Virus record (IMG/VR): IMGVR_UViG_3300032167_000073
DNA: 37,548 nt
Strand: one strand, 5' to 3'
From: a virus
Taxonomy: Duplodnaviria > Heunggongvirae > Uroviricota > Caudoviricetes
In this document: piece after piece, positions 5,801 through 35,941 of the stretch
Numbering within the stretch: the first letter of the stretch is position 1
Layout: each line of letters begins with the position of its first letter
Made by a program: the position numbers and the translations under genes
Notes under the pieces: model-generated
What the model saw: only the letters and a program-made list of their open reading frames with translations
What the model was told of the DNA's origin: nothing
Database searches by the model: none

Positions 5801-6143
5801 TCAAAAGCGAAGTCTGAAAGAAAAGCTGAACGCTCAGACGATGCATCTTGGCTATCTGGATGTTGTCGGCGAGCAATATGCTGGAATTCTCGTTGTAATG
5901 AGCGTAGATGCAAAGTATTCTCCTAAGATGAAAATGTACTCGCTCAAAAATGGTACGACGCTTGATTTCAAGATTGACAAGAAACTGTTTGCAAAAAACA
6001 AACTGTCTGCTGGCGATATTGTAAGAATTCTTTCAAGCAAGACCAAGCCGAAAATGAGGCGCTGCGAAGATGGAACATTTGAAGAGGTGCCAAATACAGC
6101 GGAGCGCTGGATAACCAACTACAGAAAGGTGGAGAACTTGTGA
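2835..6143 (+). CDS. dnaE: DNA polymerase III alpha subunit (family C, PHP + Pol3 core)
   Basis: PHP motifs HLHS, SEHGN, GTDTH; core motifs SRGSVSGS, ADIDTD, HPAG, KLDILGL, YQEQ, FSKNHS. Confidence 0.96.
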   Translation: MRIPMQYVLYHLHSQLSNGTTNIDSITFPDLYVEAAKACGMKAMAFSEHGNLFFWKHKKEEIEKAGMKYIHAVETYLTSTITEKVRDNYHCVLIAKNYDGVKELNKLISKSFGRIDDNHFYYTPRITFEELFATSDNIIVTTACLGGVLHNGSVIEKEKMLGFLAMNKHRCFLEIQHHNCEEQIEYNRLLYDLSKTTGIPLIAGTDTHALNDEHMDGRALLQKSKGVRFANEDAWDLTFKTCKQLIRAYEIQKSLPMDVVYEAIENTNVLADMVEPFKLDYSAKYPKLYDDSEGVFKKKINEGVVRRGIMKYPDYDRYVKRIHQEFDTYKHNNAIDFMLLEEDYKSEMRRRNIKFGYSRGSVSGSIIAYLLGITEVDSVRLNLNFERFMNKERVSLADIDTDWLSEDRKVVKDYLYSKHGLYCCDIVTFNTIALKGAIKDVCRGLYRELDPRSKLSPKWQKVYDEYKRTADALNGQGTEFTMPEDLKEEIERVSGGNYMKIADEIIALAEVDEQAARKKHPKVFKYVDLVKDCIVSVGNHPAGCVVSPIPVDEWFGTFTTSTDEYPISMLNMKEIDSLNFVKLDILGLDNIGLIYKTCDLAGIPFLTPDNTPSDDLAVWRSIRDDTTMIFQWESGSATAYLKQLMSDKTIEAIKEKNPNFSYMDLLSIGNGAIRPAGESYRDKLAQGIYQDNGHEALNNFLAPTLGYLVYQEQIIEFLHSFCGYTMGEADVVRRGFAKKTGTEKFIPKIKSGFSKTMKEKYGVSEDEAEKLIVNFIKVIEDASSYLFSKNHSDPYSWIGYICGYLRYHYPLEFITTALNIFETKEDKTLAIIAYAKSVGIKISPIKFRHSIAQYNFDKSGNQIFKGISSIKYMNAAVANEMYELRNNQYKNFMHLLYDLREKTSLNSRQIKILIELDFFEEFGDANFLMAQYEVFDTLDGKRQFKKQALESMGFPIDLIRPYAEKETEKMFTGVNIRMVMLSCVDHIRYQKRSLKEKLNAQTMHLGYLDVVGEQYAGILVVMSVDAKYSPKMKMYSLKNGTTLDFKIDKKLFAKNKLSAGDIVRILSSKTKPKMRRCEDGTFEEVPNTAERWITNYRKVENL

Positions 6144-8445: not shown

Positions 8446-8460
8446 TTGAGGTGTAGTTTG

Positions 8461-10665
8461 ATGAAGATTATCAAAAGAGACTGTACAGAAGTAGAGTTTG
8501 ACAAGTCAAAAATCTATGAAGCGATCATGAAAGCGATGCAGTTTGGCAGTGGTATTGTTAAGCCCGTCGTCGCAAAAGAAATTGCCTCCGAGATTGAAAC
8601 AGAGGCAAGGTATATTGAGGATTTGGATATCCACGCCGTAGAAGCTATGGTTTTTGAAAAGCTGATTGGCAAGGGTGAAACACTCACAGCAAAGGCGTAT
8701 GAGGGATATCGCAGCGTCCGTGAATTCCAGCGCGACGTGAAGAATTCAACTGACGATTCAATCATTGAATTGCTCAATGGTCAGAGCGAATACTGGAATG
8801 ACGAAAACTCAAACAAGAACGCCGTTCTGGTCACTACTCAACGTGATTACATGGCTGGAATTGAAAGCGAGGATATCAGCAAGCGCATGCTGCTGACACC
8901 GGATGTCATTCAGGCAAACGATGAGGGCATCATTCATTTCCATGATATCGACTATTTCGGTCAGCGCACACTTCATAACTGCGATCTGGTTGATCTCGAC
9001 GATATGCTGCAAAAAGGCACCGTCATCAGCAATGTTATGATTGAAAAGCCGAAGTCATTCTCTACGGCTTGTAATATTGCCACGCAGATTATTGCTCAGG
9101 TGGCAAGCAGTCAGTACGGTGGACAGTCCATCTCCCTTACACATCTTGCTCCGTTTGTTGAAGTTAGCCGTCAGAAGATCCGCAAGGAAGTGGAATCTGA
9201 GCTTTCCTGCATCGACGAAATGAGCATGGATAAGGTTGCATTGATTGACAGCATTGTTGAAAGCCGGCTGCGCGAGGAGATTAAGCGCGGCGTTCAGACC
9301 ATTCAGTATCAGGTTGTGACGCTCATGACCACCAATGGTCAAGCCCCATTCCTTTCTGTTTTCATGTATCTTGGGGAAGCCAAAGATGAAAAGACAAAGG
9401 CAGACCTCGCGCTGATCATTGAAGAAGTCCTGCGTCAGCGCATTCAGGGCGTGAAGAATGAAAAGGGTGTATGGACAACTCCGGCGTTCCCGAAGCTCCT
9501 GTACGTACTTGAAAAGGATAACACATACGAGGGCAGCAAGTATTTCTACCTGACCAAGCTCGCTGCTGAGTGCTCTGCAAAGCGTCTTGTGCCAGATTAT
9601 ATTTCTGAAAAGAAGATGCTTGAGTACAAGATTGACAAGAACGGCAATAGCCATTGCTATCCGTGTATGGGTTGCCGTTCCTTCTTGACACCGTATGTCG
9701 ATGAACAGGGCAATCCGAAGTATTATGGCCGCTTCAATCAGGGCGTTGTTACAATCAATCTGCCCGATATCGCATTGTCTTCTGGCGGAGACATGGACAC
9801 CTTCTGGAAGATTTTCGATACGCGCACAGAGCTTTGCCATAAGGCATTGCAGCTTCGACATCAGCGTCTTGAGGGAACCCCATCTGATGTCGCTCCAATC
9901 CTTTGGCAGCACGGCGCAATTGCCCGTCTTGAAAAGGGAGAGAAGATCGACAAGCTCCTCCATAATGGCTATTCTACCATTTCCCTTGGTTATGCTGGAC
10001 TTTATGAATGCGTCAAGTTTATGACTGGTCATAGCCATACGGATAAGGGGGTTGGCGAAGCATTTGGCCTCAAGGTGATGCAGGCGCTCAATGACAAGTG
10101 TGCTGAATGGAAGAACTCTGAGCATATCGATTACAGCCTGTATGGAAGCCCGATTGAGTCTACAACGTATAAGTTTGCCAAGTGTCTGAAGAAGCGCTTC
10201 GGAATCATCCCCGGCATCACGGATAAGGATTATATCACTAACTCCTATCATGTGCCTGTATTTGAGAAGATCAACGCATTTGATAAACTGGCGCTGGAAA
10301 GCAAGTTCCAGAAGCTTTCTCCGGGCGGCGCAATCAGCTATGTTGAGATCCCCAACATGAACGACAATCTTGATGTTGTTGTCCAGCTCATCCAGTTCAT
10401 CTATGAAAATATCATGTATGCAGAGCTGAACAGCAAGAGCGATTATTGCATGGCTTGCGGATATGATAAGGAAATCAAGATCATTACCGATGAAAGCGGC
10501 AAGCTCGCATGGGAATGCCCGTCTTGCGGAAATCGCAATCAGGCAATGATGAGCGTTGCTCGTCGCACATGCGGATACATCGGAACGAACTTCTGGAATC
10601 AGGGGCGCACACAGGAAATTGCAGAGCGCGTCCTGCATGTGGATGATATGGATCTCTGCGAATAA
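8461..10665 (+). CDS. nrdD: Anaerobic (class III) ribonucleoside-triphosphate reductase with ATP cone
   Basis: IIKRD ATP cone, MGCRSFL finger loop, CxxC...CxxC zinc site, glycyl-radical RRTCGYIG. ATG 8461 after GAGGTG. Confidence 0.97.
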   Translation: MKIIKRDCTEVEFDKSKIYEAIMKAMQFGSGIVKPVVAKEIASEIETEARYIEDLDIHAVEAMVFEKLIGKGETLTAKAYEGYRSVREFQRDVKNSTDDSIIELLNGQSEYWNDENSNKNAVLVTTQRDYMAGIESEDISKRMLLTPDVIQANDEGIIHFHDIDYFGQRTLHNCDLVDLDDMLQKGTVISNVMIEKPKSFSTACNIATQIIAQVASSQYGGQSISLTHLAPFVEVSRQKIRKEVESELSCIDEMSMDKVALIDSIVESRLREEIKRGVQTIQYQVVTLMTTNGQAPFLSVFMYLGEAKDEKTKADLALIIEEVLRQRIQGVKNEKGVWTTPAFPKLLYVLEKDNTYEGSKYFYLTKLAAECSAKRLVPDYISEKKMLEYKIDKNGNSHCYPCMGCRSFLTPYVDEQGNPKYYGRFNQGVVTINLPDIALSSGGDMDTFWKIFDTRTELCHKALQLRHQRLEGTPSDVAPILWQHGAIARLEKGEKIDKLLHNGYSTISLGYAGLYECVKFMTGHSHTDKGVGEAFGLKVMQALNDKCAEWKNSEHIDYSLYGSPIESTTYKFAKCLKKRFGIIPGITDKDYITNSYHVPVFEKINAFDKLALESKFQKLSPGGAISYVEIPNMNDNLDVVVQLIQFIYENIMYAELNSKSDYCMACGYDKEIKIITDESGKLAWECPSCGNRNQAMMSVARRTCGYIGTNFWNQGRTQEIAERVLHVDDMDLCE

Positions 10666-17868: not shown

Positions 17869-19107
17869 ATGCCGAAGTCCAGAAAAGACAGCAAAGGCCG
17901 TGTTCTCAGAGCCGGAGAAACAGAGCGCAGAGATGGCCGTTACGCCTACATGTACACTGACAAATACGGCGAACGTCGATCAATTTACGCAAAAACCCTT
18001 CAGGAGCTTCGCAAAAAGGAAGAATCCCTTGCAAAAGATGCTCTTGACGGTATCGACTCTTACACGGCACGGAACCTAACACTCAATGACCTTTTTGATC
18101 GGTACATCAAAACAAAGACCTCGCTGAAAAACACAACCCGGACAAATTACATCTACATGTACGATACGTATGTCCGGCAGTCCTTTGGAAAGCTTCAACT
18201 TGATACAATCAAGTATTCTGATGTGATGACCTTTTACAAGGATCTTCTGGCTGAAAAGCTCAAGGTTAATACGCTTGATGTCATTCAGACTGTTCTGCAT
18301 CCGACATTTACCATGGCGGTGCGAGACAATATCATCAGATCGAATCCAACTGATAGAATTATGGTTGAGCTAAAAAAGGATTTTGATAAGTGGGCGGGAG
18401 TCAGAAGGGCGCTTACGCCAGATCAGCAGCGTGCTTTTATGAATTACTGTAGGAAAAGCCGAACCTATTGGAGATGGCATCCATTGCTTACAGTAATGTT
18501 TGGAACTGGCTGTCGAGTTGGCGAAATCGTCGGCCTCACTTGGCAAGATATCGACATGGAAAATCGTTTAATCAGCATCAACCATACAGTGAGTGATCAT
18601 TCTGTGATTGATGAAAATGGCAAACGCTGTAATCCGTTGAAAGTATCTACGCCGAAAACTGAGGCGGGAACCAGAATTGTTCCCATGACAGACAAGGTGT
18701 ACGAGGCATTTGTCGAGGAAAAGGAATATCAAGATCGGTTTGGCTCCAACACTGCTGAAGTGGACGGGATGACTGGTTTTGTGTTCCAGAATCGAAATGG
18801 CAACGTATATCGCGCCTGTACAATCAACTTGGCTATTGACAGAATCAGAACCAGCTACAATGCAGAGGAAGAGGCTTGCGCAGCCAAAGAGGGTAGGGAA
18901 CCGATCATCGTTCCATATTTCACCTGCCATCACATGAGGCATACGTTCTGCACAAGATTGTGTGAGCACGTATCTGATATTAAGGTGATTCAGGAAATTA
19001 TGGGGCATGCGGATGCTCAGACTACGTTGGATATCTACGCAGAAGTCACTACCGAAAGAAAGGTAGCAACGATTAAATCGCTGTCTATGAGTTTGGACTT
19101 GTGCTGA
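17869..19107 (+). CDS. int: Tyrosine integrase, Tn916/lambda type with N-terminal arm-binding domain
   Basis: N-terminal RKDSKGRVL..GE..R.DGRY; catalytic GCRVGE, HHMRHTF, MGHAD..TTLDIY. Confidence 0.96.
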   Translation: MPKSRKDSKGRVLRAGETERRDGRYAYMYTDKYGERRSIYAKTLQELRKKEESLAKDALDGIDSYTARNLTLNDLFDRYIKTKTSLKNTTRTNYIYMYDTYVRQSFGKLQLDTIKYSDVMTFYKDLLAEKLKVNTLDVIQTVLHPTFTMAVRDNIIRSNPTDRIMVELKKDFDKWAGVRRALTPDQQRAFMNYCRKSRTYWRWHPLLTVMFGTGCRVGEIVGLTWQDIDMENRLISINHTVSDHSVIDENGKRCNPLKVSTPKTEAGTRIVPMTDKVYEAFVEEKEYQDRFGSNTAEVDGMTGFVFQNRNGNVYRACTINLAIDRIRTSYNAEEEACAAKEGREPIIVPYFTCHHMRHTFCTRLCEHVSDIKVIQEIMGHADAQTTLDIYAEVTTERKVATIKSLSMSLDLC

Positions 19108-24133: not shown

Positions 24134-24541
24134 TTATTCCTTCACAGTCCACAGCGCTTCAGTGCCGACCGCACCCGGCTCCCATACGTTGTTGTCAACA
24201 GCGCTCTCATAGGTCACGCCATTATGCGTCACAACGTCGCCCTTCATATACGGGTTTGTGCTGCCCGGCTGCTCCCACTCAGGAACAATATTCTCGTCCG
24301 GAATGAGCACCTTCGCCCAAAGGCTCGGCGCAGCATCCGGAGTCCATGTCTCCTGAGACGTATGCGCCGTCAGGCAACGATAAAGGACGCCTGCGTACTT
24401 CACGCGAGCGTCCACCGCGTATTCAGTTTCGTTTGCCCATTCTGGGAAAAGTGTTACGGCGGTCAGTGCAATCTTGTCTTCAACGGATTGCATCGCCTGT
24501 TCAATAATTCTGCGGTAGTGCAGTGCCTGTTCTCTTGTCAT
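24134..24541 (-). CDS. Carbohydrate-binding protein (CBM5/12, chitin-binding type aromatic repeats)
   Basis: Two repeats of W...Y..G/D.V.Y/H.G..Y......W.P....LW. Confidence 0.78.
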   Translation of the reverse strand: MTREQALHYRRIIEQAMQSVEDKIALTAVTLFPEWANETEYAVDARVKYAGVLYRCLTAHTSQETWTPDAAPSLWAKVLIPDENIVPEWEQPGSTNPYMKGDVVTHNGVTYESAVDNNVWEPGAVGTEALWTVKE

Positions 24542-24544
24542 AGC

Positions 24545-24868
24545 TTACTCCTTTTCGCCCATGAGGACGGCCAGCGCTTCCTTGGCGTTGTGACCTTCCT
24601 GCAGCATTTCTGTCGTAATCTCAATATCCGCTTCAAGGGATACGCAGACGGATTCCGTGCCGTGCATAGCACCCTGCGTAAAGACGAATACGCTGTCGTC
24701 CAGCACCATGCCAACCTCGTCCATCTCCTCGTGCACCTTGGCGCAGATACCCTCTGCCTGCTCCTGCGGGCATGCGACGTAGCAGCCGTTCTTGTGCAGT
24801 CGGATGTATCTGATCGCATCCGTGTAAAGTGTCTTGTCTTCTGTCATAATCCTGAACATGCTGATCAT
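24545..24868 (-). CDS. Small tail-associated protein (possible fibre chaperone)
   Basis: Operon strand with tight spacing; weak resemblance to 29741-30085. Confidence 0.65.
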   Translation of the reverse strand: MISMFRIMTEDKTLYTDAIRYIRLHKNGCYVACPQEQAEGICAKVHEEMDEVGMVLDDSVFVFTQGAMHGTESVCVSLEADIEITTEMLQEGHNAKEALAVLMGEKE

Positions 24869-25278
24869 CCTTTCATAATTAGTTTTCTGATATATTCAAG
24901 ATCGCTGATTTCAGCGTTGTAAAAATCGTAGTTCCAAACCCAGTCGTCTTCATGCTCCGGGCGCTTGTATTTAAGGCACGTTTCGTCCTCCCAAATCTTG
25001 CCCCATACATGAGCATACCTGCTGTCGCCGACTTTAAGCTTCCTGAGTCTTTTCAAAATGTCCTGCGTCAGTTCGCCGCGTTTAAGGCCGCTTCCGTCAT
25101 CATTCTGCGCGAAGTAGTCGTAGGCATTCTGGCTCGTAACGCTGCAAATGCGTCCCTGCGGGAACAGGATGAATCCGTTTACGGCATGCACCTTTGCCCC
25201 ATAGGGCAGGGCAATGTCGCCGCAGATGGCTCGTCCTTCAAATTTCTTGATGACAATATAAGTATCATATTGTTTCAT
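24865..25278 (-). CDS. Hypothetical protein overlapping the 3' end of the DGR RT (137 aa)
   Basis: Start overlaps the RT end by 14 nt, with SD CAGGAG inside the RT. Confidence 0.75.
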   Translation of the reverse strand: MKQYDTYIVIKKFEGRAICGDIALPYGAKVHAVNGFILFPQGRICSVTSQNAYDYFAQNDDGSGLKRGELTQDILKRLRKLKVGDSRYAHVWGKIWEDETCLKYKRPEHEDDWVWNYDFYNAEISDLEYIRKLIMKG

Positions 25279-26665
25279 ATTGTTCTCCTGTGTGATAATC
25301 TCTGCGAATTTCCCGCAGTTTGTCGTATGCTCTTGCGCGTCTGCTTCTCGGTCTGCATCCTTCTCGTTTAATCACCGGGATAAATGATGCGGTTTTCTGG
25401 CTTTGAAGCTGCCTGATCTTGTCAAGTAGATCCTGTTTGGAATCGGAATATACCCATCCGAATTCATTGTGCCATGTTCCGCGAAGCGTACACTTGAAAG
25501 CAAGTCTGTATTCTGAAAGTTCTTTAGCGAAGATAGAGCAAAACAATTGGTCTGTTGAATGAAGCGTGCGAAAGCTGTTGCATCGTCTGGCGTGGGCTCT
25601 CCATGATTGATAAGAGGCAAAGCAGTCATCTGTGTCGAATCTTCCTGCGTCCATCCATCCTCTGAAAATGTGAAGCTTTCTGCGTATAGCGCGGATGCTT
25701 TGCCTGCTCAGTTTCATCGTCACTTTGCCGTTTTCCTCAAGCCGTATGCGCAGCTTGAGAAATCGGAAACTGTGGCTTTTCAGCGGAGTGATTTTGCACT
25801 TCTTTTCGTTCAGCTCCATGCCGATGGACTTTGTAAATTCCGTCAGCCTACGATGAAGCTCTTTGAGCTTATCGATGGATTCGCAGATCACATATCCGTC
25901 GTCCATGTATCGCGCATAATGCTTGAACCCAAGAACGTCTTTGATAAAGTGATCGACCGGACTGGCGTAATCAAGTGCAATATTCTGCGATACCTGACTG
26001 CCAAGCCCAACGCCGCATGACTGTCCATCGATATAAATCACGTCGCTCATCTCCCTGAAATCGTCGATGAGCTGACAGCCGAGCTTTTGCAGCCGCTCGT
26101 CCCAAATGTGTTCTTTGAGTCTTTCCTTTGCATGCTCATGGGGAATAGAGCCGAAATAGTTCTTGAAGTCAAACTGATAAATGCCGCCGTTAAGTCCATG
26201 CTTGCGGTAGTGCTTTTGCAGATGACTTTTGAGCCTGCGCAGCGTCATGTCCATACCCTTACCGGGCAGGCTTGCGCTGTTGTCGTAGATGAAGCTTCTG
26301 GAATATGCCTCCGTCATAATCTGGTCACAGAAGCATTTCTGCACCGTGCGATCCTGTATCGTCAACGCATTGATGCTTCTCAGTTTTCCGTGTTCAACGG
26401 TGTTAAAGTGCTTGAATCCTTTGAATTTGTAGGTATCATTGTGCAGCGCGTCATAAAGCTTCTGCGTCTCGCGCACAAGATGGGTTTCAAAGTGGATCGT
26501 CGATGCTTTCCATCTGACGCCCTTGCAGCATCCCCTTGCTGCGTCCAGCAGGTTTTCAAATGTGAATACTTCGTCAAATGTTTTCCCGCAGACTGTTGCT
26601 GCCTTTTTCATTCGTTTTGCTTTTCGCCGCTGATAGCGGCGCTCATGTCTCTCTTCGCTGTTCAT
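25265..26665 (-). CDS. DGR reverse transcriptase (466 aa) with C-terminal extension
   Basis: FDFKNYFGSI, GVGLGSQVSQ (SQ motif characteristic of DGR RTs), catalytic YARYMDD, FLK; adjacent TR and avd. Confidence 0.96.
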   Translation of the reverse strand: MNSEERHERRYQRRKAKRMKKAATVCGKTFDEVFTFENLLDAARGCCKGVRWKASTIHFETHLVRETQKLYDALHNDTYKFKGFKHFNTVEHGKLRSINALTIQDRTVQKCFCDQIMTEAYSRSFIYDNSASLPGKGMDMTLRRLKSHLQKHYRKHGLNGGIYQFDFKNYFGSIPHEHAKERLKEHIWDERLQKLGCQLIDDFREMSDVIYIDGQSCGVGLGSQVSQNIALDYASPVDHFIKDVLGFKHYARYMDDGYVICESIDKLKELHRRLTEFTKSIGMELNEKKCKITPLKSHSFRFLKLRIRLEENGKVTMKLSRQSIRAIRRKLHIFRGWMDAGRFDTDDCFASYQSWRAHARRCNSFRTLHSTDQLFCSIFAKELSEYRLAFKCTLRGTWHNEFGWVYSDSKQDLLDKIRQLQSQKTASFIPVIKREGCRPRSRRARAYDKLREIRRDYHTGEQYETI

Positions 26666-26925
26666 ATATAAAGTAATCTTCCTGTATAGCTGTATTCTGG
26701 CTTGTAACTACGTAACTCAGCGCCCATGAAACCTAAGCCGCCAGTGGCATAAGGCCATGCAAGAAGCGTCCGGACGCTGGTATCAGAAAGCTGTTTTAGG
26801 GTTGCCTTTCGGCAAGCGCCAAGGTGTATGCCCTCCCTCTGTCAAAGGATATGGTTTTCGCTCATCGCTACTCAGTCGAATCCTCGGTCTGTATACCATA
26901 GACACAGGCCGTGCCAAGAGTCTGT
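26666..26925 (-). ncRNA. Structured spacer (3' part of the DGR template RNA) between TR and RT
   Basis: 260-nt non-coding gap with perfect palindrome AGCGTCCGGACGCT (26765-26778) and minus-strand hairpin TTGCC-GAAA-GGCAA (26802-26815). Confidence 0.65.
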
Positions 26926-27039
26926 CGCCACGCCATTGCAATTGTTCGCGTTGTTATTGTTCGCACTGCCGTTGGTGTTCACATTGCAGAAATTGTTCGA
27001 GTTGGTCGCATTCGTCGAACGCAGCCACCAGTTAGCGGT
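26926..27039 (-). repeat. DGR template repeat (TR), 114 bp
   Basis: Minus strand reads TANWWLRSTNATNSNNFCNVNTNGSANNNNANNCNGVA with 15 AAY codons and 35 A; gapless match to VR. Confidence 0.97.
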
Positions 27040-27061
27040 AACAGGGCATAACCTGAAGAAG

Positions 27062-27508
27062 TCATTTCGTGTATTGTCTGTATCTTTCGATATCGGAGGT
27101 CATGACGGCTTTGATCAAAACAGATTCCTTGTTGAGATATTCAGCCCATGCTTCAAACACCTTCGCAGCGTCTTCCTTGCTTCCAAAGAAATTGTTTCCT
27201 TCAAGCAGGAATGTCAGCGTCACGGTAAGCAAACTGCTCATTGAGAAAATTGCCGAACGCGCTTTGATCAGGTGTTCTCTTCGCATGTTAAATTCCATTT
27301 CGGATATGCCCTTGTGGACATAGATGGAATTGGCACGCATAATATTGTCGTGTATTTCAATAGATAGCCGCAGGATTTCATCTGCAAAGATAAATCGCTG
27401 CGCTTTGGGGAATTTCTTGATTTGCCTTGCCGTATATACGGTTAAATCCTGTGCAACTTTCAGAAATTCCACCTTGGATTCTTTTCGTTTGGATGCATAA
27501 ACCGACAT
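27062..27508 (-). CDS. avd: DGR accessory variability determinant (bAvd-like four-helix bundle)
   Basis: 148 aa with FPK..RF...EI.....I...I..AN pattern; lies between target and TR. Confidence 0.88.
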   Translation of the reverse strand: MSVYASKRKESKVEFLKVAQDLTVYTARQIKKFPKAQRFIFADEILRLSIEIHDNIMRANSIYVHKGISEMEFNMRREHLIKARSAIFSMSSLLTVTLTFLLEGNNFFGSKEDAAKVFEAWAEYLNKESVLIKAVMTSDIERYRQYTK

Positions 27509-27533
27509 GATATTTTCCTTTCGTTCATGTCCA

Positions 27534-27574
27534 CATCCCTCCCGGTACAGGCTCCCGCCTATACCTTCGGGATG
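27534..27574 (-). promoter_or_regulatory. Hairpin/cruciform downstream of VR (candidate DGR homing element)
   Basis: Minus strand GGTATAGGC-GGGA-GCCTGTACC (27565-27544; 9-bp stem with one G-T pair, GNRA loop), extended by CATCCC/GGGATG. Confidence 0.75.
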
Positions 27575-27589
27575 GGGTAGATCAGTAGA

Positions 27590-29026
27590 TTAGACACAGA
27601 AGGCCGGCGCCACGCCAAAGCAACCGGTCGCGCCGGTAGCGGACGCACTGCCGGCGGTGTTCACAAGGCAGAAATAGGACGAGTAGGTCGCACGCGTCGA
27701 ACGCAGCCACCACGGAGCGGTCGATGTATTCGCGCTGTGTCGATAGAACACTCTGCTGTTACCATTTGCGTAGTACGCATATCTCTGCTGATAGTTTTGT
27801 TCTGCGCTGTTTGCATAAGTTCTAGCACCTTGTACTTCCCATTCGGAAAGCAGCCAGAGATAATCGGTCGTCGCCGTTACATAGGAAGCAGTATCCTTAC
27901 CGCCGCCTGTATTGTCGGAATACTTGGTGCATCCACGCATGACGCCACGCAGTTCTACGGGGAGTGCGGCCAGCAGGCTTCCTTCAAGCGGTTCAGATGG
28001 GAGATAATTGCTGCCCAGAAGGACAGTGCGCATCTTACTTGCATTCCATCCGCCGCTATTGGAGTTGGTGTAGTTCATATTGAAGTAACCAGCCGTGTTG
28101 CTGACGGAAGAATTGTATTTGGAGTCGATCAGGCACAGATTCTTACCGGAAGTCTGCGCAGACTTGCCGATCTGGAAGTGAATTGTTCCCTCACCCTCAT
28201 AGGTCGGATTATGATCAAAACCAAGGATGAACGCCCAGATGGACAGATTATCAAATGTCGTCAGGCCAACAGTTCCGTTGATGATAATCTCCTTCGTATC
28301 GCCGACTGCAAAATAGTTCGCAGCAAGACTGGAAGCGGACAGAACGGAAATGGTTGTCCAGTCGTTGTCGTTGAGAACGGGCTGAACCTCACCATTGAAG
28401 ATTTCAATATACTTTGCTTTGTGCGTCTGAACGCCAGCATTGTACGTCCATTCCTGACCGTCAATCTCGCAGCTCACAGTCCACGTGCCGCGCTCATAAA
28501 CGGTGAAATAATGTGCGCCCGTGCCTGTAGATGTGTAGGTCTTCGTGCCATTGGTACACGTAACCGTGGTGGAAACGTCGCCCATCACGTAGCAGCCAAC
28601 GGTCGCTTCAAAGAAGATGAGCTTCACGTTGTCAGCGCCCTTCAGGTTGCCCGTACCCTCGTCTGCAACACGATCTCCGCTTGTACCGTTTACCGTCCAA
28701 GTGCCGTCGCTTGGCACGCTCAGGAATACTTCGCCATTTGACAGTGTACCCGTCACGGTATCCGTACCGTTCGTCGCGGTAACAGAGCCAGTCTGAAGGT
28801 TAGAGGAAACAGACAGCAGCAGGCTATCCGTGTGATGCGGCCTTGTGCCTGTTACGCCAAAAATCTGTACGCCGTCAGCGATGTTGCTTGGGATGAAGTC
28901 TTCGTCGCCAGCTTCAAGGATGGCGTTCATCTCTACCGGCGTCATTTCATCCGTTGTGCCAGTCAGCTTCCTCATGCCGTCCGCCCATGCGGTCAGGGTA
29001 TCTTTCTGAATCAGATAAGCATCCAT
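27590..29026 (-). CDS. DGR target: tail-fibre / receptor-binding protein with C-terminal DUF6273/CLec-like variable domain
   Basis: N-terminal DTLTAWADGMRKLTG fibre-attachment-like segment, two beta-rich repeats, NDWTTI...FAVGD start of the C-terminal domain, WWLRS...GVAPAFCV end containing the VR. Confidence 0.92.
   Translation of the reverse strand: MDAYLIQKDTLTAWADGMRKLTGTTDEMTPVEMNAILEAGDEDFIPSNIADGVQIFGVTGTRPHHTDSLLLSVSSNLQTGSVTATNGTDTVTGTLSNGEVFLSVPSDGTWTVNGTSGDRVADEGTGNLKGADNVKLIFFEATVGCYVMGDVSTTVTCTNGTKTYTSTGTGAHYFTVYERGTWTVSCEIDGQEWTYNAGVQTHKAKYIEIFNGEVQPVLNDNDWTTISVLSASSLAANYFAVGDTKEIIINGTVGLTTFDNLSIWAFILGFDHNPTYEGEGTIHFQIGKSAQTSGKNLCLIDSKYNSSVSNTAGYFNMNYTNSNSGGWNASKMRTVLLGSNYLPSEPLEGSLLAALPVELRGVMRGCTKYSDNTGGGKDTASYVTATTDYLWLLSEWEVQGARTYANSAEQNYQQRYAYYANGNSRVFYRHSANTSTAPWWLRSTRATYSSYFCLVNTAGSASATGATGCFGVAPAFCV
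27608..27721 (-). repeat. DGR variable region (VR), 114 bp
   Basis: Encodes TAPWWLRSTRATYSSYFCLVNTAGSASATGATGCFGVA; 25 mismatches to TR, 24 at TR adenines. Confidence 0.97.
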
Positions 29027-29604
29027 CAGAAGCTCACCTCCTCAGCATTTTCAAGCGCCTGCGCAGCCCACGCGCCGGAGCTGTTCACGCACAGGAACTT
29101 GCCTGCGTCGCTTGCGGTAACGCTTGGCAGCAGTTTTGCGCGGATGTCGCTGTGCGCACTGGTATTTGTGTTGTGCGCGGAAACAGCAGAAGATGCCGTG
29201 CCGGATGCATCAGCGCCGACTTCACTTGCTGTATAGCTCGGCTTGCTCGCCGCTTTCGCCCAAGATGGAACGGTCGGGTCGGTTTCCGTGTGCCCCGTAA
29301 TAAACCCGCTGTCGTTTGTAAGCTGGCTCGTTTTGCTTGGAATCGTCGGCAGGTTTTTAAGATCGCTGTATTCGCCGCTCAGTGCAACCTCGGCAAGAGC
29401 CGCCATTACAGCGTCATCGCAGAACGGAAGCGCATTCACGTTCTTTGTTCCGTCGCCGATCTTCATACGCTCGTAGTCGTAATCGGCATCGATATCATAG
29501 ATGATCACTTCGCCCTTGAGCGGCGTGAAGTTCGTGGCCTTTGCCCAGTTTGCAGCGGTGTCATGCTTGCAGACCAAGCGGCCATAGATTCGTTTTTCAC
29601 TCAT
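29026..29604 (-). CDS. Tail-fibre protein with Mtd_N/hyaluronidase-N-like N-terminal domain
   Basis: KHDTAANWAKA...LKGE...MKIGDG...LPF motif plus fibre motifs SGEYSDLKNLP and DPTVPSWAKAASKP; TGATG overlap with the target gene. Confidence 0.8.
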   Translation of the reverse strand: MSEKRIYGRLVCKHDTAANWAKATNFTPLKGEVIIYDIDADYDYERMKIGDGTKNVNALPFCDDAVMAALAEVALSGEYSDLKNLPTIPSKTSQLTNDSGFITGHTETDPTVPSWAKAASKPSYTASEVGADASGTASSAVSAHNTNTSAHSDIRAKLLPSVTASDAGKFLCVNSSGAWAAQALENAEEVSF

Positions 29605-30100: not shown

Positions 30101-33100
30101 TCAGATACAGAATCCAAAGGCGATGCCAAGGTTCTGAGCAGACGCGCCAATGTTGCTCGGATCGCCCATAGAACCGATGTACCTATAATAGTGCATCATT
30201 TCAAGTCCCGTTGAGCGCGTCCAGTAGCTCTTCAGTCCGCCGCCTGCATTCTGCTTCTTGCGGCTTTCTGCGTTGGTGTATACTGGATACGGTTCACCCT
30301 GTCCAACCATAACGGAGTTGGCAACTTCCGCATTCAGCTCTCGGTCGGATGGGAGCCACAGCGTATCCGTGGTTTCGTTAAGCGCCTTGTCATAGAAGCC
30401 AAGGTCGCTGACCTTGATGACGGGCTTAATCACCTGCTGCAGTTCCGCTGGCATTGCGGCAAACAGCGTCTCCTGCATCCATGTGCGAAGGTCTGCGCTT
30501 CCCCAGCCGCCGACGTTCAGCGCCTTGGAACCCGTAGCCTCAGAGACATGCTGCGTCTGGTTCATGATGCGTGCCGTGTTGCCCATGATCTTGCAGATAA
30601 ACGTCAGCGCAGCGGTATCTTTGCCGCCGTTGTAGCTGTCGCTCACGGTCGCCAGCTTGTCGTGGTTGTGACCGACAATTTCCATCTCAACTTTGTTTTC
30701 AACGCCGCCCACGGTGTAAGTCATTACCTTGCGTCCGCCAAGGCCGTATGCGCTCACATCGCCGTTTTGCGCAGCCGCCGCAATGGTCGCCCAATCATCG
30801 TTAATGTAGCCGTCAAAGGCAAACTGCGCATAGTAATACGTAATGCCCGTGATCGGCACGTCGGGGGATGGAGACCAGCCGGAGAATTCATGATACGGAG
30901 AAGCGGTTTCACCGATCATCTTGTAAATCTGCGTCGTGTCGCCTACAAACACCGGGCATTCTCCGTAGAATGTCATGCACTCCTGCTCAAGCTTGTTATC
31001 GTTGTAGAAATAGCACTTGTAGCTGCGCAGAATCTCTTCAAATACCGGCTTGAGGACAAGCGGGGTAGTGACAACGCTGAAATCGCGATCCCACTTGGTA
31101 TACTCGTAGGTATATTGAGCAGTCTCCTTCTTCGTCGGCTTTGCCATCGTTCCAGCAAGAATCGGGTCGGTAGCCGCATTTCCTTCGACAATCCATTGAG
31201 ACTCAGCAATCTCGCCGTCATTGTCACAGAAATCAACGCGATATGTACCGGTGTACTTGGCGACAATGTGATACGGCTTGGTGACACTTGACGGCATCTC
31301 AGACCAACCGGCATACACATACGTTGCCGTCTCCGTATCCGGACGAACAGGCTGCGTAATGTGACCAGCGGTAATCGGGTTAATCGCCGCATCGCCCTCA
31401 TTACAGATGTAGCGATACAGAAGCTTGTTGTCGTAGTTCACATAGCGAACAAAGAACTTCGCTGTGCCTCCGGCAACGACAACCAAAGCGGGGAATACGT
31501 CGTTGATCTCTTCAAGCAGCGCATCGGAAATGCTGTCCACATATACACGTCCTTCGACCACGGCGAGATCCGTGTTGTTGCCGATAGCGTCCATACCGAT
31601 GCATTCCTTGAGCTTTTCATACGTTGTGCGCAGTGTTTCTTCGCTTGTCGCGTTCCATTCAACGCCGGACAGACGTACGCGGTCGAGGAGAGGTGCGTTG
31701 CATACAATGCTCTCAATGTCAATTCCCGGCGTATTCTCAATGCGAAGCGTCGTCAGGTTATCGACACCTTCAAGCACGACGGTTTCAAGATTCTTCTGGT
31801 TCTGGATCGTCAGGTTCGCCAGCGTCGCCGGAAGCTCGATGCGCTTGAGGTGTCCGCCGTTTGGCAGGCTGATGCCCGTCAGCTTCGTTCCTTTTGCCAG
31901 AATGGTTTCAAGGCCGTGGCATCCAGAGGCGTCGATTGTCGTCAGCTTTTCGCTTGTACAGTTCTGGATGTTGATCAGCGTCAGCAGTTCGTTGTTGCCG
32001 ACATCAAGGGAATAGAGGTTCGGATTTTCATATCCTTCTGCATCGGAGCCAAGAATGATTTCCTGAAGCTTTGTTGCAGAGGAGAAGACGGCGAGACCTA
32101 CCATGAGATGAGAAAGGTCGCCAACGGAAGCGATGCGGTCTGCGGAATAGATGTAGACTTCAGTATCGTTCATCTGATCCAGCGGACATTCCATCGTGTA
32201 GGTTTCGTTGCGGTATCCTCTGTTGGTTACGGTCGCGCTGCCGAACTTGATGCGCGGCCAGATGTGGCTGTATGGGGTAACATCGATATTGCCCGTATCA
32301 TAGCAGCGCAGGGTGATGTAGTTGGTATTTGCTTCACCCGCCTGATGTTTGCTATCGCGGAACTTAAAGCCATTGAAGAGCCAGAAATCACGCTGCGCAT
32401 CCTTGTCGCCCTGAAGCATTTCGAGGTAGTTTTCGCCTTTGACAAGGAACGGCTCAAGCCACTTCTTGTAGGCATCCTCGTTCCAGATTGCCTGCGGCCA
32501 AGTCTGCTGATGGTTGCGCATCTTGTCGCGGATCGTTTCATAACTCAGCGTTCCGGCATTACGAAGGGTCTGATACATTTCGGTGATTTCGTTCTTAAAC
32601 GCATCGCGCACGTTGCACCAAAGAGCGCTGTGCTGTCCGTTGAAGACGTCTTCACCATTCACGGTATCTGTGTCTTCGAGGTTGTAGTCAAAGACAAGCT
32701 GTCCTTCGTTGTTGATACCAATTGCGGTATCCCAGTCGTAGGGGATAGGGAACCAGTGCTGACCGTCGAATGTGGTCAGGAACATGTTCTTCGCGCGGTT
32801 GTCAACCATCAGGAAGATTTCTGTGAAAAGGTAGTAGAACACGCAGGCGTCCTTGATCAGATACTGATCGAATTCATCCTTGAACTTCGCAAGACGCGCG
32901 GCCTTTTCTTCTTCGCTGTCCACCAGCTCGCGGTTGCATTCAACCAGCCAATCGGTCAGGCGCTTAAACTGCGCGTAATCGCGGTACGGGTCGTCGAGGT
33001 CGGGGAAGCGTGCTTCAAAGTCGTCCGTCCAAGCCGGATATTCTTCACCCTTTTCGTCAATCGCCATCTGCTCGAATTCAGATTCCTTGAAGATCACGCG

Positions 33101-35941
33101 GTTGCTCGTATTGTTGCAGAATTCCCAGCATTCGCAGTTTGGATATACGTCGCGGTCAAAGCCGAATACGTTTTCGTTGCTCTTGTCGTCATTGAAATTG
33201 TACTTGGCGATGAACGTCACTTCGCCAGTGTTCGTATTCTGCCAGAATACGCAGCACGGGAAACCACGAACACCCTGACGCACACGATCATCAAGCTCCT
33301 GCGGCGGCGTCTTGTATGGGCAGTTCTGCTCGTAGTAGTCAACCAGCATAACGTTGTTCGCGCTCTCGCTGGAAGCGAAGTCTGCCTTCAGACAGATCGT
33401 CTCTCCCGGAAGACCGCCCTCAAAAATCGGGAACCCGTCTGTACTTTCTCCGGAGTTGGTATAAATCAGTCCGCTCTTGAGCGATACCTTATAGTTCTTC
33501 ACCGGATACCCAGCAGAAGACGTGCCCTGAACGTCAAGCTGAACGCCGCTCGCAGTAAAGCTTCTTTCTGGATTCATCTGATCCACGAACGTCACAGATT
33601 TATTCTTTTTCTTGTCACCCTTAAACTGCGGAAGCTCCTCACACTCGATAATCATATAGGGGATGTTCATCGGAAGAGCACCAACCGTCACGTTCTTGTT
33701 TTCATCAAGGACGTCGTTGCGCTCATGCAGCGCCTTGCGCTCCGCCAGCGTAGAACGGTCGCAGATATAGTTATTGAGCTGTTCGTGACGGGTCAGACCC
33801 TTGTTGTAAATGCGCAGCACATACAGGTCAAGACCGCAGCTCTCCGCACCAATAGTGATACCGACCGGGTTGCTCTGTGCAAAGTTGTCCGTGTCGGTGT
33901 ACTGCGTCACGCCGCACATCACGCCGTTGATGTACACATACACAAAGCGGGAAAGGCTCTTCTGCTCAACGACAAACGTAATGCGTACCTTACTGTCTTC
34001 CTTAAACTGAACGGATACGCTGGACTGCTCGGAGGAGAGCATCGCCTGTTGGCTCTTGATCATAAAGCCACGTCCACCGTTATAGGAAGTTGCCACGATA
34101 GAATCGTAGTCGCGCACGTTATGCGTCGCAAATTCTGCTTCAATGGTGTAACCGCTGGTGCGGAAGTCCTTTTCAAACGGCTTGTACGGAATAGTCATGA
34201 AGTCGTCTGGCAGGAAACGAAGCACGGTATGTCCGTCCTTGTCTTCTACCCATCCGTCAGCGCCAGCCCAGCCAAATCCGCTGAATTCCGCTTCAATGTC
34301 GCCCTGAACCCAGCTATCCGGATTGGCTTCGGAATTGCTGCGCCCAGCAGCAGTGAATTCAAGTGTCATGCTGTCCGTCAGAATCGTGCGGTCAAAGCTT
34401 GATTCGGACACCTGAACAACGATGCTTTCCTTGGCATTGCCGCAGGAAATCTCAAATGTCGTTGCGCCGACAGGATAATCCTGTGTCACCCAAGTCTTTG
34501 GCGTTTGATCAATTTGAATTGTCTTTTCGCTGTATACAATACTGCCCTCGCGCAGAATCTTGAGCGTTACGTCCATGTTCTGTGAGAACGGATCATAGCA
34601 CATGTAAGGGATAGTCAGCGTTTCTCCCTGTTGGATGCTTCCGCCGTCATGGTTAATCAGAACGGCCTGATCTGTCATCGTAGAAGAGTAGTACATCATG
34701 CCAATTCTCAAACGATTGGATTGAATGGTCAGCCCATCCGTCGTTACCTCAGCGTACATTTCAAAGATGTGTCCGCCGTCATATTGTGCGGGAATCGTAT
34801 ATGTACGACTTGAGTCAACAGCAGAAACGCTTTCTGTGCCAAGCTCATAACCGTCCATAATAAAATGAACTGTCTTCACACCTTGACCAGTCAGAACATA
34901 GGGGAGATAGACCGTTCCGGTATACAGATCCATATCGGCAGCGGTCGTGGTGATCGCCAGCGCAATAACGGTAACTTCGTATACCAGCGTCTTGCTCGTT
35001 CCCTCAGAGTTTTCAACGGTCAGCCTTACGTTATTAAGGCCATTGGAAAGATGGTTGGTGATGTCAATGGAGCTGCGTCCCTGTGCCACAGAAATAGATG
35101 CTTTCTTGACAGAGTTGACGGTAATCGTACCAATACCGGCTCCATCGTCGATACCTTCGCTGTCGGTAGAAATATACTGAACATCCAGCACAACGTTTTC
35201 ACCTTGAGCAACGGAAATGATACGACTGTCCAGCATGTTTGTCAGCGTAACTGCATACATGCCGTCAGATCCCGTTCCGCCACCGCCGCCAGTGATCGTC
35301 ACCGGATCGCCAACAGTCTCGCCTCCGCTTGTCAGCCATAGCTGGCTGTTTTCATATTTAAGACCGTCAACCATCTCGCCGACAAGGAAATCGCCAAGAT
35401 TGTCTTTCAGGTCTGAAACTTCTTCGCCGATTGCGCGTACAGCGTCACCGGCAGTTGGATATGTCGTCCCGTCATGACCTGTGCGGATGTCAATCAGCTC
35501 AACATTGTCAGCAGGCGTACTTCCTTCAATCAGGGACTGTAAACGAGCTTCAAGCAGCGCAATATCGTCTTCAAGCTCAATTGTTTTCGTGTCAATCAGG
35601 TCTGCATTGGCGTTCAGGATTGCAACGTCAATCACGTCAGTATAGGCGGGCTTGGTCAGCATAAGCCTTTCCGTCGTTCCTGCGGCATCTCCCTCAGTCT
35701 TTCCGGAAATCCCGCCCCAAGTCTGAGCGGCGCTTTGTGCAGCGCTTCCGGCAGTCACATAAGCAAGGTCTTTCCAAGGAGTTTCGCCGTCGCCCACCTT
35801 TACTTTGGTCATATCAGAAGCAAACTCAACGCCAATTTCGCCCCTCATCAGAACGACGGTTTCTTCAACCGCAGCCCAATTCGCACTTGTGTCATTGCGC
35901 ACAATAATGCGAGTGGCTAATTCATTGATATTCATCGGCAT
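30101..35941 (-). CDS. Giant multidomain tail-region protein: Mtd_N-like, LamG-like, CotH-kinase-like, LRR, InlB-B-like repeats, DUF6273/CLec-like (start may be 35935)
   Basis: RNDTSANW..GEIGVE..KVGDG; QGTSS..YPVKNY, LKADF, DNRAKN, PIPYDWD; LxxLxL repeats; YxxxGW repeats; YWTRS...GIAFGFCI end. SD AAGGAG spacing favours ATG 35935. Confidence 0.85.
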   Translation of the reverse strand: MPMNINELATRIIVRNDTSANWAAVEETVVLMRGEIGVEFASDMTKVKVGDGETPWKDLAYVTAGSAAQSAAQTWGGISGKTEGDAAGTTERLMLTKPAYTDVIDVAILNANADLIDTKTIELEDDIALLEARLQSLIEGSTPADNVELIDIRTGHDGTTYPTAGDAVRAIGEEVSDLKDNLGDFLVGEMVDGLKYENSQLWLTSGGETVGDPVTITGGGGGTGSDGMYAVTLTNMLDSRIISVAQGENVVLDVQYISTDSEGIDDGAGIGTITVNSVKKASISVAQGRSSIDITNHLSNGLNNVRLTVENSEGTSKTLVYEVTVIALAITTTAADMDLYTGTVYLPYVLTGQGVKTVHFIMDGYELGTESVSAVDSSRTYTIPAQYDGGHIFEMYAEVTTDGLTIQSNRLRIGMMYYSSTMTDQAVLINHDGGSIQQGETLTIPYMCYDPFSQNMDVTLKILREGSIVYSEKTIQIDQTPKTWVTQDYPVGATTFEISCGNAKESIVVQVSESSFDRTILTDSMTLEFTAAGRSNSEANPDSWVQGDIEAEFSGFGWAGADGWVEDKDGHTVLRFLPDDFMTIPYKPFEKDFRTSGYTIEAEFATHNVRDYDSIVATSYNGGRGFMIKSQQAMLSSEQSSVSVQFKEDSKVRITFVVEQKSLSRFVYVYINGVMCGVTQYTDTDNFAQSNPVGITIGAESCGLDLYVLRIYNKGLTRHEQLNNYICDRSTLAERKALHERNDVLDENKNVTVGALPMNIPYMIIECEELPQFKGDKKKNKSVTFVDQMNPERSFTASGVQLDVQGTSSAGYPVKNYKVSLKSGLIYTNSGESTDGFPIFEGGLPGETICLKADFASSESANNVMLVDYYEQNCPYKTPPQELDDRVRQGVRGFPCCVFWQNTNTGEVTFIAKYNFNDDKSNENVFGFDRDVYPNCECWEFCNNTSNRVIFKESEFEQMAIDEKGEEYPAWTDDFEARFPDLDDPYRDYAQFKRLTDWLVECNRELVDSEEEKAARLAKFKDEFDQYLIKDACVFYYLFTEIFLMVDNRAKNMFLTTFDGQHWFPIPYDWDTAIGINNEGQLVFDYNLEDTDTVNGEDVFNGQHSALWCNVRDAFKNEITEMYQTLRNAGTLSYETIRDKMRNHQQTWPQAIWNEDAYKKWLEPFLVKGENYLEMLQGDKDAQRDFWLFNGFKFRDSKHQAGEANTNYITLRCYDTGNIDVTPYSHIWPRIKFGSATVTNRGYRNETYTMECPLDQMNDTEVYIYSADRIASVGDLSHLMVGLAVFSSATKLQEIILGSDAEGYENPNLYSLDVGNNELLTLINIQNCTSEKLTTIDASGCHGLETILAKGTKLTGISLPNGGHLKRIELPATLANLTIQNQKNLETVVLEGVDNLTTLRIENTPGIDIESIVCNAPLLDRVRLSGVEWNATSEETLRTTYEKLKECIGMDAIGNNTDLAVVEGRVYVDSISDALLEEINDVFPALVVVAGGTAKFFVRYVNYDNKLLYRYICNEGDAAINPITAGHITQPVRPDTETATYVYAGWSEMPSSVTKPYHIVAKYTGTYRVDFCDNDGEIAESQWIVEGNAATDPILAGTMAKPTKKETAQYTYEYTKWDRDFSVVTTPLVLKPVFEEILRSYKCYFYNDNKLEQECMTFYGECPVFVGDTTQIYKMIGETASPYHEFSGWSPSPDVPITGITYYYAQFAFDGYINDDWATIAAAAQNGDVSAYGLGGRKVMTYTVGGVENKVEMEIVGHNHDKLATVSDSYNGGKDTAALTFICKIMGNTARIMNQTQHVSEATGSKALNVGGWGSADLRTWMQETLFAAMPAELQQVIKPVIKVSDLGFYDKALNETTDTLWLPSDRELNAEVANSVMVGQGEPYPVYTNAESRKKQNAGGGLKSYWTRSTGLEMMHYYRYIGSMGDPSNIGASAQNLGIAFGFCI

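Follow-up and report, generated by a model that had tools for sequence, protein, structure and literature searches.

A complete and recently active diversity-generating retroelement with a DUF6273 target protein in a Caudoviricetes phage

The 37,548-nt viral record IMGVR_UViG_3300032167_000073 (Caudoviricetes; hereafter the window, to which all coordinates refer) encodes a genuine, complete and recently active diversity-generating retroelement (DGR), whose DUF6273 target is of a type already described in gut phages. Very probably it is the complete DGR of a large gut phage, works by mutagenic retrohoming and diversifies the DUF6273 tip of a tail-fiber-like protein. All of its parts lie on the minus strand, in the 5' to 3' order target, avd, template repeat (TR) and reverse transcriptase (RT). 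The target gene (27590..29026) encodes 478 amino acids (aa), modeled as an N-terminal helix, two immunoglobulin (Ig)-like beta-sandwiches and a C-terminal DUF6273 domain that holds the variable repeat (VR; 27601..27721, target codons 436-475 of 478, with a diversified core at 27618-27715). Downstream are a hairpin or cruciform (27544..27565), an avd-like accessory gene (27062..27508, 148 aa), the TR (26919..27039, 121 nt), a structured RNA located between TR and RT start codon (26657..26885, Rfam RF03077, RT-2 RNA) and the RT gene (25265..26665, 466 aa, intact open reading frame). All defining components of a DGR are thus present. The original prediction had called the element complete, and the TR/VR pair, the RT, the Avd-like gene and the hairpin were all found with their parts intact.

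The largest direct repeat that a repeat finder reported for the region is the TR/VR pair (26919-27039 and 27601-27721). Across all 121 nt the two align without gaps and with 28 mismatches, 27 of which fall at TR adenines (p 4e-17). A shorter, 114-bp gapless alignment with 24 of 25 mismatches at adenines had been proposed earlier, and our recount of that part (26926-27039 versus 27608-27721) gave identical figures. On the coding strand, the 24 adenines are changed to C (10), G (7) or T (7), and the sole exception is a C to G change near the 5' edge (hypergeometric p 3e-15 for at least 24 of 25 mismatches on the 35 adenines in 114 nt). The repeat reaches 7 nt further 3' than this span. The VR is in frame at the target coding sequence's 3' end, and 37 of the 38 TR adenines occupy codon positions 1-2, with no stop codon reachable by adenine substitution. 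The recount also agrees with the 15 AAY codons previously noted in the VR frame and with the figure of 15^15 protein variants derived from these codons alone; TR codons 1-35 together permit ~10^20.6 peptides. No further VR-like copy was detected anywhere in the 37.5-kb window.

The original prediction had described the DGR as apparently active and had proposed as a check that the VR should be polymorphic only opposite TR adenines and that the TR should be invariant. We ran this check on independent public assemblies, taking those whose RT or Avd is identical to that of the window together with members of the 90% protein cluster of the target, and compared the DNA of the variants. The outcome was positive. 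Nine VR nucleotide alleles and ten peptide alleles were recovered, and across the nine alleles 33/38 TR-adenine sites are polymorphic versus 4/83 other sites (Fisher p 5e-20). One of these four is accounted for by the TR allele (see below). In the ten peptide alleles, the variable residues all lie in A-containing TR codons: all 15 AAY codons vary, and none of the A-free codons does. Tyr, Asn and Ser are the commonest residues at the diversified codons.

One case is a 1,647-nt contig from another sample (L022). It has 25 differences from the window, every one of them in the VR, and 0 at the 1,526 positions elsewhere. This VR was therefore rewritten more recently than any point mutation arose in those 1.5 kb, which dates activity of the element to within the time that one substitution takes over that length. 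The same pattern was found in a sister lineage (lineage B) that is ~6% diverged from the window and comes from the samples SAMN15829892, -893, -896, -898, -928, -929 and -932. Among six lineage-B loci, the pairwise difference per site is 0.19 for the VR core, 0.001 for the remainder of the target and 0.0002 for the RT, and it is 0 for avd, the TR and the spacer including the RT-2 RNA. At the protein level, seven lineage-B targets have an identical backbone and every VR is different. The predicted activity is thus borne out by VR-only rewriting in otherwise identical genomes (L022 and lineage B).

The TR itself is invariant within each lineage and occurs as one of two alleles, with CA or TG at TR nt 72-73 (window 26968/26967). 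The VRs carry the TR allele of their own lineage (C or T at TR nt 72, with the adjoining A or G), so a polymorphism of the TR is mirrored in the matching VRs and non-adenine information moves from TR to VR. The sole exception is L021, which has a TG-type TR with a CA-type VR. This locus belongs to a group of ten (L012-L021, from at least nine samples) that are 99.4-100% identical to the window, one of which (L013) is the window's own record. L021 is a mosaic in which lineage-B-like single-nucleotide polymorphisms (SNPs) extend from 27045 to 25943, starting at the TR and continuing into the RT gene. Clustered SNP patches were also observed elsewhere, in L015 at 28250-28289 and in L017 at 24671-24749. 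The mosaicism suggests that strains circulating together recombine often, or that the assemblies are chimeric. An alternative origin of the VR diversity, in place of reverse transcription of the TR, would be that already diverged alleles recombined or underwent gene conversion. The lineage mosaic, the SNP patches in L015, L017, L018, L020 and L021 and the mismatched TR and VR of L021 speak for this origin; however, it does not account for variation confined to TR-adenine positions (33/38 versus 4/83), for A-free codons that never vary or for VRs that carry the non-adenine allele of their own TR. We regard it as extremely improbable.

Behind the VR, the original prediction had placed a hairpin, and we confirmed it as a 9-bp stem with a GRNA-type loop (GGGA) that is conserved in relatives. 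It runs from 27565 to 27544, starts 35 nt past the end of the TR/VR homology and is enclosed by an outer helix reaching to ~27532-27576. A hairpin with 9/9 paired positions and a 4-nt loop appeared in only 23 of 2000 shuffles. Five of the nine stem pairs are G-C, which makes it less G+C-rich than usual. In relatives, whose RTs are ~56% identical, the same hairpin is found 28-36 nt after the VR, with GCAA or GAAA loops and compensatory changes in the stem. Guo et al. (2011) described an element with a 7-10 bp stem and a 5'-GRNA loop that is required for homing in BPP-1 and is present behind other phage VRs (PMC3240598), and the hairpin in the window conforms to this rule.

The 3' end of the VR (27601..27616) is G+C-rich and, on the basis of its sequence, resembles an initiation of mutagenic homing (IMH) site. 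Its first 9 nt are identical to the TR, after which the VR has C, G and C where the TR has A, A and A (TR nt 115, 117 and 119). These three positions are monomorphic in all nine VR alleles. Because the last three adenine mismatches are fixed in every VR allele, they appear to mark an IMH-like boundary and not to be products of diversification. The arrangement recalls the IMH/IMH* distinction, although its form is unlike the (GC)14 plus 21 bp of BPP-1 (PMC3240598).

The TR is separated from the RT start codon by a gap of 253 nt that contains the RT-2 RNA. The match to RF03077 (26885-26657) scores 106.7 bits, where the gathering score is 40, and covers the full length of the model (1-222). The RNA was found in the same position in four relatives (L001 at 4696-4996, L002 at 3537-3837, L003 at 1427-1727 and L006 at 4680-4935), which encode RTs ~56% identical to that of the window. 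Weinberg et al. (2017) described the motifs RT-1 to RT-19 near RT genes; RT-2 was left without a function, RT-10 lies between TR and brt of BPP-1, and a DGR role of the other RT motifs was speculation only (PMC5737381). In the literature collection that we searched, no paper assigning RT-2 to DGRs was found. By analogy with BPP-1, RT-2 is probably the priming or spacer domain of the RNA of this DGR. It is also likely, by comparison with the unrelated RT-10 of BPP-1, that RT-2 serves as the spacer or priming domain of the DGR RNA throughout a clade of gut-phage DGRs whose targets are DUF6273 proteins.

The RT matches Pfam RVT_1 (5e-18) and PHROG 1423 (5e-82). Against all solved chains, its best match is 8ub7_A (2.4e-17), from a structure titled 'Diversity-generating retroelement (DGR) ribonucleoprotein reverse transcriptase', and the next RTs reach only 9e-5 or worse. 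In this alignment LGSQVSQ stands opposite IGSLTSQ and YMDD opposite YMDD, so the intact YMDD and SQ motifs attributed to the RT are indeed there, in an intact reading frame. The protein combines the features of DGR-type RTs, namely the RT domain, a motif 4 of the form [I/L/V]GxxxSQ and YxDD. No match to a retron or defense-RT family was obtained with NCBIfam and PADLOC, which returned only sub-threshold and generic RT matches, respectively, and on these grounds we place the RT outside those families. Judged by its sequence, the RT is a DGR-type enzyme.

The RT C-terminus shows a variation of its own. L018 and L020 differ from the window at 25300-25589, corresponding to the C-terminal ~100 codons, by ~30 clustered changes, among them a compensated +1/-1 indel pair. 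Within the RT protein cluster, substitutions are concentrated at residues 342-458. The pattern of substitutions marks the C-terminal extension as a variable or exchangeable segment. A 137-aa gene that overlaps the RT stop codon was considered as a further DGR accessory gene and rejected, being found beside the RT in only one related locus.

The presence of avd, also part of the original prediction, is supported by a match of the 148-aa protein to PHROG 3206 ('Avd protein of DGR', 3e-9), by a structural model that forms a four-helix bundle (predicted local distance difference test score, pLDDT, 87) and by the place of the gene between target and TR, which is kept in relatives. The best structural matches of this model are to the IVP-family structures 2gsc and 2rld (TM 0.77-0.80), and the match to the solved Avd, 8ub7_B, is weak. 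RT and Avd are a textbook binding pair.

In the target protein, Pfam DUF6273 (PF19789) matches residues 369-478 with 43 bits (cut-off 23.5), and the VR forms the C-terminus of this domain. A model built from a 44-sequence alignment has a pLDDT of 88, and of 94-98 across the VR. It predicts an N-terminal helix, two Ig-like sandwiches at ~64-213 and a C-terminal domain at 214-478. In comparisons with predicted viral structures, a 'Tail-collar fiber protein' matches best (E 4e-48) and several DUF6273 proteins come next; these names are all automatic. Searches against solved chains returned nothing credible with phmmer, and the 44-sequence profile gave a single row, nitrous-oxide reductase 1qni, at E 0.92, which we consider noise. 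The target has no Mtd match in Pfam either. A homolog of Mtd was therefore rejected as an identity for the target, given the absence of both an Mtd Pfam match and a solved-chain match and the presence of DUF6273 at the C-terminus instead. The mtd-avd-TR-brt layout of BPP-1, which had been predicted for the locus, consequently holds for the gene order (target, avd, TR, RT) and not for the target.

Tentaclins begin with a C-lec/DUF6273-like domain, continue with Ig-like domains and end in an anchor Ig (PMC10743442), and the protein in the window likewise combines a hypervariable DUF6273-type domain with Ig-like beta-sandwiches in a phage DGR target. In the model, however, the order is reversed: residues 64-213 form the Ig-like domains and residues 214-478 the DUF6273 domain with the VR. 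The protein also lacks the N-terminal VR and the C-terminal anchor Ig that define tentaclins. Because of this reversed domain order, the target was not classified as a tentaclin. In one member of the target family (P0014, on an ENA ERZ27248436 contig), the protein is cut to 424 aa. The gene spacing suggests that a 1-nt deletion upstream of the VR causes the truncation, and this copy is either a pseudogenized target or an assembly error.

Taken by analogy with known DGRs, the parts suggest the following mechanism. The TR would be transcribed together with the RT-2 spacer RNA, and the RT and the Avd-like protein would copy the TR transcript into complementary DNA (cDNA), misreading template adenines. 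The IMH-like, G+C-rich end of the VR and the hairpin with a GRNA loop that follows it would then direct retrohoming. In this way up to 20 codons (15 AAY and 5 ANN) of the C-terminal, presumably lectin-like DUF6273 domain could be randomized, for ~10^20 variants in principle. We infer the cDNA step, and with it an RT-dependent transfer from TR to VR, from the analogy.

Several results weigh against, or limit the case for, a complete and recently active DGR with a lectin-like target. On the protein side, NCBIfam DivGenRetAVD and Pfam 23S_rRNA_IVP match the Avd-like protein only below their cut-offs, and neither phmmer nor an 8-sequence profile reached the solved Avd among solved structures. When the whole target model was compared with PDB and Swiss-Prot using Foldseek, the two Ig-like domains dominated the matches and no C-type lectin (CLec) structure was listed, which we do not read as absence of such a fold. 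On the population side, the test rests on consensus assemblies rather than reads, in which minor variants are hidden, and three non-adenine VR changes are not explained by the TR allele. The latter lie at window 27713 (TR nt 9), in L022 (TR nt 69) and in L031 (TR nt 84) and give CCG, ACG and CCG, respectively. In all three, an AAY codon has its third base turned into G immediately behind an A-to-C change, and they could be context-dependent errors of the RT or later silent drift towards CG. Finally, the exact VR of the window is present in 11 assemblies (the window and L012-L021) that differ from each other at 1-32 other positions, so that diversification appears to be episodic or to be masked by consensus assembly. 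The samples with this allele include JGI 3300024270, 3300018475, 3300018494, 3300022753, 3300023371, 3300024268, 3300024272, 3300024303 and 3300019378 and ENA ERZ27248306, and no diversification was visible in their dominant populations.

This last observation is also what would be expected if the present cassette were dormant, with the VR differences reflecting past activity of the lineage and the current VR allele fixed. We consider dormancy improbable. L022 has the backbone of the window, with 0 differences over 1,526 nt outside the VR and 25 inside it; the RT, TR, RT-2 RNA, hairpin and IMH-like end are intact across these assemblies; and the uniform VR is itself drawn from consensus assemblies that hide minor variants.

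The DGR is embedded among genes with similarity to fibers, all on the minus strand. The gene preceding the target encodes a 192-aa protein (29026..29604) that overlaps the target start by one base and matches PHROG 19976 'tail assembly' (1.5e-5) and, below the cut-off, Pfam Mtd_N (3.6e-4). Further upstream, a giant fiber-like protein of 1946 aa (30101..35941) has PHROG matches, a tail-fiber-type N-terminal motif and a DUF6273-like C-terminus. Its C-terminal 157 aa (30101-30883 region) are 31% identical to the C-terminus of the target, including the stretch equivalent to the VR, and no TR-like sequence was found in this domain. A DUF6273-like tip that lacks similarity to the TR makes it an undiversified paralog beside the diversified target. 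The N-terminal motif DT-ANWA ... GDG is common to the 192-aa protein (29400-29604) and the giant fiber (35740-35941), whereas the target is without it. It matches PHROG 19976 and, weakly, Pfam Mtd_N, and may be a common attachment module. On the other side, downstream of the RT, a 135-aa protein (24134..24541) has PHROG tail-fiber matches and a CBM_5_12 carbohydrate-binding domain (precomputed Pfam), so the DGR is flanked on both sides by adhesin or fiber genes.

From this fiber-module neighborhood, and from structural look-alikes that carry automatic tail-fiber names, it is reasonable to infer that the target binds a host-cell receptor and that its diversification serves host-range adaptation, in line with the receptor switching that the original prediction had put forward. 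A less likely, though not negligible, alternative is that the target is an accessory adhesin for animal mucus glycans or the surfaces of other bacteria, while the undiversified giant fiber sets the host range. Proposals of this kind exist for Hoc-like and tentaclin DGR targets, and what DUF6273 targets bind is left open in published work (PMC10743442; bioRxiv 2024.10.15.618418). The two Ig-like domains of the target and the undiversified DUF6273-like tip of the adjoining 1946-aa fiber would fit it as well. Receptor binding is favored by a VR that, like that of Mtd-like receptor binders, lies at the very C-terminus, by the place of the target gene within the fiber module, with its one-base overlap with the preceding fiber-like gene, and by best viral structural matches that bear the automatic name of tail-collar fiber proteins.

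Elsewhere in the window, on the plus strand, we identified a large DNA polymerase (2835-6143, PHROG 405), an NrdD-type anaerobic ribonucleotide reductase (8446-10665) and a tyrosine-type integrase (17869-19107, PHROG 1). By their annotation, the three genes suit a large phage that infects an anaerobe and may be temperate. The RTs closest to that of the window (56% identity) lie on contigs binned with Oscillospiraceae/Oscillibacter metagenome-assembled genomes (MAGs) and with one Desulfovibrio MAG, which is weak evidence for the host. The host environment is probably the ruminant gut, as suggested by sample names (XIEF21 records), which apparently belong to a ruminant study.

The element shares with the DGR of BPP-1 the order target-avd-TR-RT, adenine-specific TR/VR differences and an AAY-rich TR. 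Common to both are a 3' boundary that is G+C-rich and is followed by fixed differences of VR and TR, a GRNA-loop hairpin after the VR (PMC3240598) and a structured RNA between TR and RT, and the BPP-1 RT is the closest solved relative of the RT in the window (8ub7_A). The two elements differ in the target, which ends in DUF6273 here and in the Mtd C-terminus in BPP-1, and in the RT, which has 466 aa with a C-terminal extension here versus 328 aa in BPP-1. In addition, the 148-aa Avd-like protein is strongly diverged from the solved Avd, the shared G+C-rich stretch is 9 nt versus (GC)14, and the spacer RNA is Rfam RT-2 in place of the RT-10 of BPP-1 (PMC5737381).

Closer counterparts are known from gut phages. 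The domain has been published as a lectin-like DGR target in gut phages. DUF6273 targets with a C-terminal VR were described in human-gut phages as the nd4/nd12 'target2' proteins (Baykov et al. 2023, PMC10743442), and DUF6273 DGR targets are also present in the Faecalibacterium prophages Lelie, CP11, Roos and Pioen (PMC11792537) and in a Toutatisvirus hotspot (bioRxiv 2024.10.15.618418). The window has in common with these the VR at the C-terminus of DUF6273, the cassette of Avd and RT, and VR alleles of near-identical genomes that differ at TR adenines. It differs in that the nearest RTs in IMG/VR and the species-genome collection are only ~56% identical to its own, and in a longer target (478 aa) with two Ig-like domains before DUF6273 that is the single target in the window; its host environment also appears to be ruminant. 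A megablast search of the cassette against 50,697 phage records gave zero matches, as did searches of viral and metagenome contig collections with the exact TR and with a degenerate pattern in which each A of the TR is replaced by N. A promoter and terminator scan of the locus was at chance level.

One more DGR among the thousands catalogued in gut phages changes little by itself. Its value is that of a clean natural example, in which nine VR alleles occur among near-identical genomes of different samples, and the TR polymorphism amounts to a natural marker-transfer experiment. The locus also places RT-2 in a DGR with demonstrated VR diversification, and the role of this RNA in DGRs could be tested. 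If RT-2 is indeed the spacer or priming domain of these DGRs, then the RTs of DGRs have evolved together with two or more different RNA scaffolds, and matches to RT-2 could be used for finding DGR templates. For the phage itself, which probably inhabits the ruminant gut, the DGR would provide an adaptable fiber if the target binds a host receptor, as its fiber-module neighborhood suggests.

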